From Chrysomallon squamiferum (taxonomy: Eukaryota; Animalia; Mollusca): a stretch of DNA of 64,000 nt. The stretch spans positions 18,910,001 through 18,974,000 of the forward strand of contig CM022678.1 in NCBI GenBank assembly GCA_012295275.1, read 5' to 3'. Shown in pieces: positions 7,203 through 22,968 of the stretch; position 1 is the first letter of the stretch; each line of letters begins with the position of its first letter. The position numbers and the translations under genes were made by a program. Below the pieces are notes generated by a model. It did no database searches, was not told where the DNA came from, and saw nothing but the letters and a program-made list of their open reading frames with translations.

Positions 7203-9316
7203 TTACAAATTGACGTCAGCATTAACAAGAAGTGGACAAGTTTCCAGCAGCCAGTCCACTGCAGTTTTGTCGTCTACTTCGTCTGGCGGAGTTTTTCCTG
7301 TTTTGAAATCATTCAGTTCAGTGACTTGGTCAGTCTCTCCTGATTTCAAGCACACAATCATCATCTTCTCCTTCTTCGTAGCATTTGCTATTGCCAAATC
7401 AATTACCTGTTTCCAGTGTGTGTTTGGCGTATCCGAATTAACAGCTACAACAAAGCATCGAATAGTAGGCATCAATCGTTTGTAAAAAGAGATATCATCC
7501 ATTCCTTCAAAGGCAAGTTCATCATTCCTCGTGACTTCAAGACCTGTATAGTTTTCCAGAATATTCTGAATCTTCACTGAAATCTGAGATGTTTGCCAGT
7601 CGTCTTTGTCATTGAGGATCATGATATCAGCACCGTTTATTTCATCTTCTTTGTTTGTTTTGTAATAGAACGTAAAAATCCTTCTGAAACACGACCAAGC
7701 TTTACACGGAGGCTGGCCTCTTGAAAAGATCTGCTGTGCTGTTTTCAGGTAAACTCTACTGACAAGAGAGGAACGAATGTCATCAGCTTGTTCCGTACCC
7801 ATCACCAGACTGACACAGAGTCTGGCATTTTCGAATTCTTGTCGGTCAAGATATTCCTGTGTAATTCCAATCCAGTCTTCTGGGCACTGATATCGGGTTT
7901 GAATTTTCCTATAAATCGGAAGAGAAGGTGCGAATTCATTTAGCATGCAGTAAACATCTTTAACTTGCCACGGTATTTCTACTCCAGGCGGACCATTCCT
8001 TTGTTTCAGCAAATCAGTTACAGTTCTAAAATGAGTGCGATATTTGTGCAGCACTTCTGAAGCAGATGCTTCTATAGCAAGAATTTTGTAGTTTACTTCT
8101 TCTTTCCTGAGCCGAGCCTGTTCACCTGGAGAAAGTGTCCGATTTTTACTTTTTTCAAAACAGATATTAGACAATTTCTTTAAAGCAGAAACTTTATAGA
8201 AGGGATTGGTATCACTTTCTGCTCTTTCTGTTACATCTCTTAAGACGGATTCAGCATCTTCAAAGGATTTATTCGTGATGTAAGCGGAAGCCAAGTCAAG
8301 TGCAGCATCAAAATTTTCGCCGTGTGTGATTTCAACGGCCTGTTTTAAAGTTTCTATCGCATGCTGAAATGTTATCCTGTTCCTTTCTTGTTTCGATTTT
8401 CTCAGCAGAACTTTTCCCAGCTGATCAAGAGCATTGCCTGTTGGGCGAAGCCTGACTGACTCTTCTAACAGTCTCTCAGCTTTATCCAGTTGCTTTGTGT
8501 TTAGGAAATGCTTACCGCACCTAGCAAGCACAAAGGGGACGTGTTTGCTTAATTCCAGAGCTTTCAGAAAATATTCCTTATGCGAAAGTAGCTCAATTTC
8601 TTGTCGCACCTTTTCTAAGACCTTAGTGTCTTCAAATGGTGTCGATCTAAATTCAAGCCGTTTCGCTAATTCCCCAAGCTCGGCATACGCCATGGCATTC
8701 AGTGGTTCAGGACCTTTACTGCCGACATCATGGAGCAGTTTACAGCATCTAACAGCGAGTTCAGCGACATCCACACCTGACTGAATTGAATAGCTCTGAG
8801 TGGACAAAGATCGCCTATGTGTTAGACCCTCTCCAAATTTCCATTCGTATTCTTCTGGATATTTCTGATTTACTTTTCTGTACAACTCCAGAGCCTTTGG
8901 ATAAGAAGCTGTCGAGATCCTAGCGTAGCAATAAGCAAGTTCAGCTTCAGCTACAGCAAGCATCCTGTTAAGGTCTCCGTCCAGGTTTTCCAGTTCGATT
9001 AATTCTGATTCAGCAGAACCGTCGTCCTGTTTTAGCAGAAAACGCACATGGTTTGCACGAGCTACAATGTTAGTATGGTCTCGATCACGGACTTTTAAAT
9101 TTATATCGGTTGCCATGTCTCGATCTCCTAGCAAAAACAGCAAGAAGGAAATAAAATTGTCGTCTCGATTTCTTTCCATCTCTTCTTCTTGTTCTCGTTG
9201 TAACTTTTCAAGTACTTTTTCTCTATGCTGTTTTGAGCAGTACATGAGATCTGTAAGATGGAAGGAGTGAGGAAACGATTCCAGTCTACCTTCGAAGAAA
9301 ATGTCCTCATCTGAAG
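7203..9316 (-). CDS. Large coding exon of TTC22/IFIT-like TPR protein with C-terminal TIR-like domain, copy 1 (about 725 aa when joined to exon 9821-9884)
   Basis: Open 2114-nt frame after acceptor ttttatttttcag| (phase 1). TTC22-like motifs: LESFPHSFHL (human TTC22 LDYLPGHFHL), NIVARAN, AEAELAYCY, AMAYAELG, YFLKALELSKHVPFVLARCGKHF. The C-terminal ~140 aa follow the TIR pattern (ADIMIL...ILENYTGLEV...FEGMDDISFYKRLMPTIRCFVVAVNS...HWKQVIDLAI...KMMIVCL). Confidence 0.92.
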
Positions 9317-9465
9317 CTGAAAAATAAAATGAAAGCAATTCGAAGCTTTTGAAGAAATAGGGATCGAAAAGTGAGTGTTCCTAAAAAGATGAATTGTAAA
9401 TGTTTCCTTTTGGTTTTTCTCTTTAAAATTAATTATAATTAATCAGAAAATGTTTTCTTTACACA

Positions 9466-9704
9466 CTCTCTCTCTCTCTCTCTCTCTCTCTCTCTCTCTC
9501 TCTCTCTCTCTCTCTCTCTCTCTCTCTCTCTCTCTCTCTCTCTCTCTCTCTCTCTCTCTCTCTCTCTCTCTCTCTCTCTCTCTCTCTCTCTCTCTCTCTC
9601 TCTCTCTCTCTCTCTCTCTCTCTCTCTCTCTCTCTCTCTCTCTCTCTCTCTCTCTCTCTCTCTCTCTCTCTCTCTCTCTCTCTCTCTCTCTCTCTCTCTC
9701 TCTC
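9466..9704. repeat. Long (CT)n microsatellite in the intron of copy 1
   Basis: Direct reading; paralogous tract at 19687-19794. Confidence 0.95.
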
Positions 9705-9820
9705 GTCTTATATAAATGTGTTTCTATCGTATTTATAACAGTAAGCAGAAGAGCGTCAGTTAAAGGTGTCATACAACATAATACAAATATTTCAGTATCA
9801 TTGTAACTGTTATTTCTCAC

Positions 9821-20071: not shown

Positions 20072-20135
20072 CAATTTTGATCCTTCCAAAATCTTTCTCT
20101 AATGTCGTTGTGCTTTGCTCTGTTTTCGCAGCCAT
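20072..20135 (-). CDS. Start-codon exon of TPR-TIR copy 2 (MAAKTEQSTTTLEKDFGRIKI)
   Basis: Acceptor ttttag|GATA ATG, 64 coding nt, donor TTG|GTGAGA. 64+2102=2166 nt = 722 codons. Confidence 0.85.
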
Positions 20136-22840
20136 TATCCTAAAAGAAAGTCACAAAATATTTTATTAATATTGTGTTTTAGCTCCACTGTACTTTTCTC
20201 TGGAACGTACCAAAATCAATCTTTTCTTCTTCCTCTTCTTTTTGTGATTATTATTATTATGATTATTATTATTATTATTATTATTATTATTATTATTATT
20301 ATTATTATTATTATTGTTGTTATTATCATTATTATTATTATTTTAAATCATACATTTTGAAAATCAAAGAATAAGAAAGAAGTAATAATATATTTTTCTT
20401 TTCTTTTTATTCTGATATTTCCTTTGAAATATATATATATATATACATATACATATGTTTTATTTTAATTTTATTTTTATTATTCTTTTTTTGAAATCCC
20501 TGGAATAAATACAAAATATAAATCAATAAATAAATAATAATAATAATAATAATAATAATAATAATAATAATACATATCTTTTTTCTTCTTTTTTTGTTTG
20601 TTTTTGTTTGATTTAACAAAAAATAAAAAATGAATAAATCAATTTCTTGTTTCGAATTAATTTTACTAGTACGTGCAACAGTTCATGTTGTCTTCTTTAT
20701 CAGCCTACATGAGCTAAAAATAGCACAGTTTTCAGCATGTGTATAACATCAGAGAGACAGAAACGGGTGTGCGAAATTAGATCACTGAGATATCAATAAA
20801 TGTTGCGAATTAGGTATAACAAATATTTATAAAACAGCTTTTAGTAGGATTTTCTTTTTCTTCTTACATTATTTTCAGGATGACCGCTGTATAGTGTTTA
20901 TTTCAGAGAATAAGAATCGAAATGACCTGCGTCTAGATTTTAAATGTAAAACAATAAAATAAGAAAATAATAATACTGAGGCATCGATTTTTGTGATCTT
21001 GTTCCTTCGGAAACTGAAATTTGACTTATTATTTTCTGTTATTTTCTTCTTGTGTATTTATACATTACCATTTCCTGATAGTTTTAACTTACATATATAA
21101 CTAGACAATTCATGAATGAATTTTATATTTTAATGCACAAGTAATGAATCAAAGATTACTTAAGTATCCAGTATCTGGTCGTAATAACAAAACTAAAATA
21201 AAACTTACCCGTTCTCGCTGGATGTTCCTTAACTTTCTAACGAGCAGTCAAAAACTGTGATAGCTTTACCTTTTCAATTTGATATATAATCAGGTGTGTA
21301 GTTTCCCTTTCGATATTCCAAAAATCGGTACAGTAAATCTAGAAAATGAGTATCAAAGCTATATAAATATGTAACCTAATAAGGTAACCTTATGACATTG
21401 TCGGATGACAACAATTTAAATAAGTTCATGCGCATCTCCTTGTTATATCTACGATCACGCCAGGACAGATTCCACTTTATTATCAAATTGCTATTACAAT
21501 AAAATACTGAGTTCTACTAACAGAATTCAATATGATATGATACGAAATCAAGATCAGTCTGATCACAAAGCTTTCCTAATTGTCTTTCGTTTTCTTTCTT
21601 TCTTTCTCTTTCTTTCTTTCTTTCTCTTTCCTTCTTTCTTTCTTTCTTCTTTCTTTATTTCTTTATTTTATTATTATTATTATTTCTTCCCATTTTCTAG
21701 ATTATCTTTTAGGCAGTTTTTTACTTTTATCTTATATTTTGATCTATATATATATAAGTATATGTATGTATGTATGTATGTATGTCTATGCATGTATGTA
21801 CGTGTTTATCATTATTATTATTATTATTATTATTATTATTATTATTATTATTATTATTATTATTATTATTAATATTATTATTATTACTATTTAGAAAGAA
21901 ATTGAAATATGAAATTGTATTTTCAAATTTAAATTAAATTCATTTGCACCAGATTATTCTTCCTTTGTTCATGTCAGTATATAATGGTACTAATTGTCTT
22001 ACATTCTATTGTTCTTGTTGCCGTTCTTTCCTTGTTGTTGTCAATTTTATTGTTGTTTTCTATTTCTCCTTCGTTATATTATTGTTACTATTTCTATTAT
22101 TATTATTATTATGATTATTATTATTACATTTGTTATTATTATTATATTTATTATTATTATATTTATTATTATTATATTTTTATTATTATTATTATTATTA
22201 TTATTATTATTATTATTATTATTAAAAAACACTTGAAGCTGAAAAAGTCAAAAGGTTGGTGTAGACATTTCACATGATGACAGTAACCTCACACAAAGGT
22301 CGTAATATAAAAATAAGACTTCTAACTCTTAATAAAATATACTAAAACAGCTTACACTTCCAACTCTAAATTATAAAATTACCAAAAACTATTCACATAC
22401 AAAGATTTTATCATTGACACAATTCACTGACCTGGAGCCACAATTACACGCAATTACATCTATGTACGGATTTATTTTCTGAAAAGACACCGTCTTTTCC
22501 TACAATGGTTTTATATTCTTAAAACTGAAAAATTCAGTACTCGAAAACATTTGCAGTCCAAACATTTAGTAGAAGGAATCCTTAAATATACATAATTATT
22601 AGCATAATTGTTGTTGTTGCCGATCATCTTCATGTAAGTATTATTATTATTATTATTATTATTATTGTTGTTGTTGTTGTTGTTGTTGTTGTTGTTGTTA
22701 TTATTATTATTGTAGTAATAGAAGTAGTAGTAGTAGTACTAGTAGTACTAGTAGTAATTGTAGTAGTATTTTGATTAACAAAGTCGAACAATGCATGCAG
22801 TTCATTTCAAATTCTTGTTCAGATCAGTAAATGACAACAT

Positions 22841-22968
22841 TTACAAATTGACGTCAGCATTAACAAGAAGTGGAAAAGTTTCCAGCAGCCAGTCCACTGC
22901 AGCTTTGTCGTCTGCTTCGTCTGGTGGAGTTTTTCCTGTTTTGAAATTGTTCAGTTCAGTGACTTGGT
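22841..22968 (-). CDS. 3' end of TPR-TIR copy 3, truncated by the assembly gap
   Basis: QVTELNNFKTGKTPPDEADDKAAVDWLLETFPLLVNADVNL*; the frame is open up to the N run. Confidence 0.8.

Follow-up and report, generated by a model that had tools for sequence, protein, structure and literature searches.

The 64,000-nucleotide (nt) stretch considered here, called the window throughout, comes from the mollusc Chrysomallon squamiferum (GenBank assembly GCA_012295275.1, contig CM022678.1, positions 18,910,001 to 18,974,000 of the forward strand). Its DNA is AT-rich, repeat-rich and eukaryotic, and it carries a tandem array of genes for proteins in which a TPR solenoid, predicted to be of the type known from vertebrate IFITs, is followed by a C-terminal domain predicted to fold as a TIR. 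A preliminary description, made from the sequence alone, had placed such an array at 7203-22968 and proposed it as a candidate family of cytosolic immune receptors. The only long open frames of the window lie on its minus strand: 7203-9380, which belongs to the intact gene A, and 17502-19664, which belongs to the intact gene B.

Intact and broken gene copies in the window

The array comprises the following features, given in window coordinates:

7203..9316, minus strand: gene A, large second coding exon, predicted IFIT-like TPR solenoid and C-terminal TIR (TIR about 7206-7661, its fold inferred from the model of paralog B)
9821..9884, minus strand: gene A, first coding exon, 64 nt (21 codons and 1 base), GT donor at 9820
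17502..19603, minus strand: gene B, large second coding exon, predicted solenoid in exon-2 residues 1-547 and TIR in 548-699 (about 17505-17960)
20072..20135, minus strand: gene B, first coding exon, 64 nt, GT donor at 20071
3964..4498, minus strand: dead 3' fragment, solenoid end and TIR, with stops and a frameshift, found by tblastn outside the coordinates first proposed
14292..14786, minus strand: second dead 3' fragment, with stops and a frameshift, found by tblastn
22841..22968, minus strand: third copy, of which the 41 codons at the 3' end are present, 98% like gene B and broken off at the N gap (22969-23168)
218..282, minus strand: copy of the first exon, belonging to another paralog, ATG at 282, 87% alike, surrounding match 123-349

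The spliced frames of genes A and B encode 725 and 721 residues, contain no internal stops and are 70.5-71% identical, in agreement with the two intact paralogs of about 720 residues first described. The tiny start exon and the single giant exon noticed at the outset are also found in both: the first coding exon measures 64 nt and the second 2.1 kb, and the intron between them (GT-AG, phase 1) has 504 nt in gene A and 468 nt in gene B. An AG acceptor immediately upstream of the first coding exon of gene A suggests an earlier non-coding exon. Hydropathy reveals neither a membrane helix nor a signal peptide in the two proteins (best 19-residue mean 1.06 and 0.89), as had been supposed from inspection.

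The tandem array is real, but it starts to the left of position 7203, because the dead fragment at 3964-4498 and the first exon with its ATG at 282 belong to it. Both had been missed, whereas the two partial copies reported earlier (14292-14786 and 22841-22968) are present. In the left-edge first exon the matching donor is preceded by one additional base, although an earlier GT would keep phase 1; the large exon of this paralog would lie to the left of the window, and the array likely continues beyond that edge. Matching blocks (633-1881 with 9981-11244, and 3457-6258 with 13781-16583) indicate that a unit of about 10 kb, made up of a first exon, a dead fragment and the next gene, was duplicated head to tail. 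Since the fragment at 14292-14786 shares its frameshift and two stops with that at 3964-4498, it was copied after death. Duplication with dead copies is thus seen at the locus, as the earlier suggestion of birth-and-death duplication implied. The sequence after the N gap (200 N) matches neither the large exon nor the first exon, and the assembly may be collapsed or broken at this gap, inside the third gene copy.

The remainder of the window is rich in repeats of other kinds. Right after the N gap comes a tandem repeat (23345-27976) whose units measure about 1.8 kb and are up to 91% alike, and a tandem duplication of about 8.9 kb (45503-54499 against 54298-63459, 90-92% identity) carries no long frame. 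Within the latter lie decayed reverse-transcriptase-like pieces on the minus strand, of which 55593-55889 gives a weak RVT_1 match (E 0.07) and 46891-47316 none. An Rfam scan of the window returned no match.

Five sequencing runs contain small shares of the words of gene B, and expression was addressed with four of them: three RNA runs from a single study and one whose kind is not recorded. The three RNA runs yielded 91, 94 and 93 contigs of the family, of which 63, 73 and 69 are less than 95% alike, and 9, 6 and 4 reach 99% or more. At the predicted acceptor (19598-19604) the RNA contigs change to sequence of the first-exon type, and one loose contig end equals the last 25 nt of the first exon of gene B (both compared by eye), while in the fourth run the sequence at the acceptor continues intron-like. 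This pattern argues that transcription extends to many divergent paralogs and that their splicing follows the prediction. Transcription therefore holds at the level of the family, the contigs being assigned neither to gene A or B nor to a level of expression.

Promoter motifs were considered as evidence of immune induction and rejected, since words resembling the interferon-stimulated response element (ISRE) occur across the window at 0.5 per kb and some of those upstream of gene B, where the start site is unmapped, lie within C/T-rich repeats. There are no such words upstream of gene A or of the left-edge first exon, and none of the three first exons has a kB motif match upstream.

Predicted solenoid and TIR domains

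A 105-row profile of the family, compared with proteins of solved structure, matches IFIT1 (E 3e-32) and IFIT5 (E 1e-31) better than any other natural protein, with only two designed consensus TPR proteins ranking higher. On IFIT1 the alignment runs colinearly through residues 7-186 and 228-469, and it takes in the N-terminal part, which is not what designed consensus TPRs match best. A single sequence run with phmmer against solved structures gives weak generic matches only, and Pfam recognises TPR-type families in genes A and B with no LRR, NACHT or NB-ARC. The structure model of gene B (predicted local distance difference test, pLDDT, 90.8; predicted template modelling score, pTM, 0.90) is an all-helical solenoid followed by a TIR. 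Foldseek with this model places IFIT1 or IFIT5 at ranks 1-10, with template modelling (TM) scores of 0.55-0.60 over the target; OGT comes next with a similar E-value, but with a TM-score of 0.20 and a root-mean-square deviation (rmsd) of 30. By profile and model, then, the solenoid is predicted to be of the IFIT type, colinear over the whole IFIT chain. A language-model search with residues 1-420 finds TTC22 (0.97; 210 of 256 features) and IFIT (0.96) as the nearest named clusters, so that the TTC22/IFIT-type N-terminus originally proposed is recovered. Kinship to TTC22 is suggested by this feature score rather than by an alignment or a tree, the sequence searches having returned no TTC22.

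The C-terminal domain is mostly passed over by standard domain scans. Pfam TIR and TIR_2 do not match genes A or B, and TIR_2 matches 3 of 58 family members; two amphioxus relatives pass the TIR_2 cut-off, and one of them aligns to the TIRs of TLR15, TLR1, TIRAP and MyD88. Modelled alone, the last 150 or so residues of gene B form five strands and five helices (pLDDT 89.6). Foldseek with this model returns the IL-1RAcPb TIR first, TIRs scoring 0.68-0.69 by TM; a flavodoxin-like fold, at ranks 2 and 4, was rejected, as it reaches 0.59 and falls below the TIRs in a wide structural search. In the latter, the IL-1RAcPb TIR is again the top match (Z 14.8, rmsd 2.8, 137 aligned residues), followed by IL-18Rbeta (Z 14.5) and the SARM1 TIR (Z 13.6). 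Ranks 1-22 are all TIR- or SEFIR-bearing, counting Cat1 and SfSTING, which we take to be TIR-bearing, and the best other fold has Z 10.7. A hidden Markov model (HMM) of the C-terminal domain, built from 73 rows that exclude the clade of the window and the deuterostomes, gives gene B 68 bits and gene A 62 bits, compared with 7.5 for the best of 200 shuffles, and gives amphioxus TIRs that Pfam recognises 45 and 30 bits. As judged from the model, therefore, the C-terminal domain is a TIR by fold, as had been proposed for the last 140 or so residues.

The motif ELAFEG of genes A and B, earlier called BB-loop-like, does align with the RDFxPG of the BB loop, with Asp and Pro lost. The family consensus is D-x-x-P-G, worn to L-A-F-E-G in these two genes; among 85 aligned rows the Asp is found in 47, the Pro in 31 and the Gly in 50, where genes A and B have Leu, Glu and Gly. 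The catalytic glutamate of enzymatic TIRs appears by alignment to be absent from both genes, which have Val633 or Ile634 (exon-2 numbering) in either register. At the two candidate columns Glu occurs in 0 and 1 of the 85 rows, in an alignment that misplaces the amphioxus protein P0117 and may miss a few Glu-bearing rows; P0117 has a glutamate opposite the conserved glutamate of TLR1. An acid at 635, one or two residues beyond the catalytic site, is present in 38 of the 85 rows, both window proteins included.

Relatives and RNA-contact residues

A HMMER scan gave 227 matches at E 0.001 or better, the best 150 of which were listed; 30 of these were looked up by cluster, yielding 22 clusters with a named member. 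A word-based search with gene B returned no relatives. Among the matches listed, the closest named relatives are proteins of Gigantopelta aegis (35-38%), with which genes A and B group at a support of 1.0 in a FastTree tree of 132 rows, from which matches under 400 residues and nine long or generic-TPR ones were left out and which contains no IFIT or TTC22; the grouping makes a gastropod the likely source of the window. The named clusters further cover the gastropods Haliotis, Patella, Lottia, Batillaria, Babylonia and Bulinus, the cephalopod Octopus, the bivalves Pinctada, Ostrea and Sinanodonta, and, in the deuterostomes, Branchiostoma, the acorn worms Saccoglossus and Glandiceps, and lampreys. 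The 22 clusters, a sample and not a survey, contain no arthropod, annelid or cnidarian and no TTC22. All named relatives are annotated as "uncharacterized", "hypothetical" or by a bare domain label. A mostly echinoderm cluster with TIR_2 in 91% of its members, found by the language-model search at a score of 0.96, is a further lead.

The same build of solenoid and TIR is found across molluscs and invertebrate deuterostomes. The C-terminal HMM detects a TIR in 94 of the 109 matches of at least 640 residues, a count that is partly circular, as 73 rows trained the model. Lineage-specific expansions recur in the family, for instance in Gigantopelta, where five loci have close locus numbers and four lie on contigs of equal 47.5-Mb size. 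Two predicted proteins, P0004 (Batillaria, 1941 residues) and P0082, apparently hold more than one copy of the unit and are possibly fused gene models from tandem arrays. Most relatives (P0003, P0006 and many others) carry a long low-complexity insert, often Arg/Gly-rich, between gene B solenoid positions 303 and 311, where genes A and B have almost none.

We mapped the RNA contacts of IFIT5, as given in the accessible parts of PMC9677429 and PMC3950709, onto 103 relatives through the alignment of the profile with IFIT. Five of the seven basic contacts (K150, R186, K257, R260 and R294) are Lys or Arg in at least 60% of the relatives, K48 and R253 falling below, compared with 1 of the 35 other basic residues of IFIT5 (Fisher p 1.4e-4; threshold-free Mann-Whitney p 0.017). 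The equivalent of H287 is His in 89 of the 103, and that of Q288 is His or Gln in 85. The position of IFIT1 R38, which is needed for cap0 binding according to an excerpt of PMC3950709, is Lys or Arg in 60% of relatives.

The lamprey members (P0226, P0228 and P0232, being LOC116948572 and its orthologs) have 839-840 residues, and shorter isoforms of 331-363 residues are annotated. The best solved match of the lamprey protein is IFIT5 (E 2e-5), and the representative P0086 retains all five conserved basic sites. Its C-terminus has no Pfam TIR and no TIR among its solved-structure matches; the family C-terminal HMM gives 10.6-12.0 bits (best of 200 shuffles 6.1), and a profile comparison gives a probability of 45% with a score of 27 (best of 100 shuffles 18). 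A TIR at the lamprey C-terminus is thus a weak signal, to be treated as a lead.

Proposed mechanism and comparison with known systems

The role that we consider most likely, with moderate confidence, is that of a cytosolic pattern sensor with an IFIT-type solenoid and a non-enzymatic TIR. In the groove of the solenoid the end of a single-stranded RNA, or some similar polyanion, would be held, ligand-bound molecules would cluster, and the clustered TIR, apparently lacking the catalytic glutamate, would recruit TIR-bearing partners instead of cleaving NAD+. Both folds are predicted, and the ligand, the clustering, the partner and the immune role are drawn from IFIT and TIR biology. In favour of this role stand the IFIT and TIR matches, the basic contacts conserved across the family and the many divergent paralogs found among the RNA contigs.

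A number of observations weigh against this proposal. The 60% threshold behind the contact counts was picked after the column counts had been seen. The IFIT5 triphosphate residues E33, Q41 and R253 are not conserved in the family, and the position of R261, whose counterpart in IFIT1 matters for binding (PMC3950709, in excerpt), is mostly Tyr. Four or five of the conserved basic sites are present in 82 of the 103 relatives, but only 2 in gene B and 3 in gene A. Where IFIT5 has K150, gene B has Met, a substitution that lowers binding by IFIT5 about 15-fold (PMC9677429, in excerpt). The solenoids are net acidic (-7 and -8), and the loss of Asp and Pro from the BB loop of genes A and B may impair adaptor binding. 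Alignment with IFIT5 thus suggests a family that looks built to hold the RNA backbone without the IFIT5 triphosphate site, in which the window copies are atypical, having apparently lost part of the IFIT RNA-contact set. Since groove and BB loop are both remodelled in these copies, they likely differ from a typical member in ligand or in strength.

The pattern of selection also counts against the proposal. The ratio of nonsynonymous to synonymous divergence (dN/dS) between genes A and B is 0.48 (0.37-0.60) by pairwise counting, and both genes are therefore under purifying selection. Positive selection was not found by the same counting in any of five regions, no regional point estimate exceeding 0.6. 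In favour of the sensor, the mid-solenoid is the most divergent part and the TIR the least, identity between A and B being 76, 57, 70 and 85% for residues 1-215, 216-420, 421-547 and the TIR; three Gigantopelta paralogs show the same pattern (53-59% in the mid-solenoid, 83-90% in the TIR). Because dS varies in step (0.31, 0.59, 0.28 and 0.16 for the same four regions), the regional identities are better explained by gene conversion at the 3' end than by positive selection, a sign of conversion rather than of a ligand site under selection.

Other roles can be weighed on the same evidence. We think it unlikely that the proteins are IFIT-like effectors or dampers rather than signalling receptors. 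On that view the solenoid would sequester a protein or foreign RNA, and the TIR, being worn, would only mediate self-assembly or would block TLR/MyD88 signalling as a decoy. The missing catalytic glutamate and BB-loop proline of genes A and B would suit such a role, the closest TIR matches are non-enzymatic receptor TIRs, and vertebrate IFITs function with no TIR (PMC3950709, in excerpt). However, most matches of at least 640 residues have the TIR (the 94 of 109 noted above, a partly circular count), and no other region differs so little between paralogs, as would fit an output domain that the protein needs; the family consensus also retains D-x-x-P-G. More doubtful still is a non-immune scaffold in RNA or protein metabolism, resembling TTC22, with an array that arose by neutral, repeat-driven duplication. 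TTC22 clusters do rank ahead of IFIT for residues 1-420 (0.97 against 0.96), the window is full of gene-less tandem segmental copies, and dN/dS carries no sign of positive selection; yet a TIR fold is attached, expansions recur in separate lineages (the five Gigantopelta loci), and the IFIT RNA-contact residues are selectively retained.

It is very improbable that the TIR is a ligand-gated enzyme cleaving NAD+, like SARM1, plant TIR-NLRs and the bacterial TPR-TIR defence proteins. The SARM1 TIR ranks third at Z 13.6, amphioxus P0117 has Glu opposite the conserved TLR1 glutamate, and 38 of 85 rows, with both window proteins among them, have an acid one or two residues further on. Against this, both window genes appear by alignment to carry Val or Ile at the site in either plausible register, and Glu occupies the two columns in 0 and 1 of 85 rows.

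Returning to the sensor with a recruiting TIR, a history of the family can be proposed tentatively, as a possibility that we do not favour outright. Its ancestral form would be an IFIT-TIR fusion, a bilaterian cytosolic receptor for RNA ends that predates interferon and signals through its own TIR. Molluscs would have expanded it repeatedly and lampreys would still have it, vertebrate IFITs and TTC22 would descend from it without the TIR, and the snail array would be re-tuning the groove to new ligands. Such a descent of the IFITs runs against their published origin in jawed vertebrates (PMC3688568, accessible text), where IFITs are reported from jawed vertebrates only and candidates from acorn worm, lancelet and lamprey were rejected.

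In all, an invertebrate family matches IFITs along the length of the IFIT chain, retains most of the RNA-backbone contacts and carries a TIR mostly missed by standard domain scans. If RNA sensing is true, it would form a further class of cytosolic receptor in animals that lack interferon, beside RLRs, NLRs and STING. The family offers direct tests both of the origin of IFITs and of virus detection in molluscs.

The bare combination of TPR and TIR is already catalogued, and the link to IFIT is apparently the new part. In amphioxus, the catalogued partners of TIR include TPR_1 and TPR_2 (PMC2575513, supplement 4), and "TIR-TPR" is a class name in a figure legend for oyster (PMC4346834) and in a supplement row for Aplysia (PMC9334734). 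These are likewise cytosolic TPR and TIR proteins of molluscs and amphioxus, and some of the catalogued genes may belong to the family described here, members of which may be listed in the oyster supplement; the ecTIR-DC families (Gerdol et al. 2017), cited in the accessible parts of PMC6321704, PMC6836662 and PMC5549309, may include it as well. The class differs, so far as those legends and rows go, in being a domain label with no domain order, IFIT link or function attached, and most members of the snail type escape such screens (the 3 of 58 matched by Pfam TIR_2). Literature searches, whose coverage excludes most subscription papers, turned up no report in which IFIT or TTC22 is connected with a TIR fusion from invertebrates, and the accessible text of PMC13197388 and PMC6723221 contains nothing on invertebrate IFITs.

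Jawed-vertebrate IFIT1 and IFIT5 (PDB IDs: 5w5i, 6c6k, 5udi, 4hor, 3zgq) are the best solved match by both profile and fold. The family retains the equivalents of the five conserved IFIT5 contacts and of H287 and often has Lys or Arg at the IFIT1 R38 position, but it does not conserve E33, Q41 and R253; identity in structural alignments is only 13-15%, and the snail proteins are about 250 residues longer, including the TIR, than IFITs of about 470 residues with TPRs only. The IFIT-like gene layout in the preliminary description stands for the tandem array and the one large coding exon, common to both, and fails for the first exon, which in IFITs is 5 nt long and codes ATG and 2 nt (PMC3688568, in excerpt) and in the snail is 64 nt with phase 1. 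The intron is therefore not common to both, and the layouts are merely alike. TTC22, a chordate TPR protein, has clusters of 496-569 residues showing TPR families only, to which the snail proteins add a TIR.

The receptor and adaptor TIRs of IL-1RAcPb (PDB ID: 7fcc), IL-18Rbeta (7fch) and MyD88 (7beq), and that of SARM1 (9hq0), have the predicted five-strand, five-helix fold in common with the snail TIR (Z 13.0-14.8). The latter differs in being fused to a soluble solenoid and in having a worn BB loop and, by alignment, no catalytic glutamate. Unlike Toll-like receptors and NLRs, the snail proteins have neither LRRs and a membrane helix nor a NACHT or NB-ARC domain. Bacterial TIR and TPR clusters score 0.87-0.89 in the language-model search, where values below 0.9 are leads only and show no sequence kinship, and the bacterial TIRs are described, in the accessible text of a study of BcTir/Tpr (bioRxiv 10.1101/2023.05.26.542521), as making NAD+-derived signals. 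What these defence proteins would have in common with the snail family is a logic, that of a TPR sensor joined to a TIR output.

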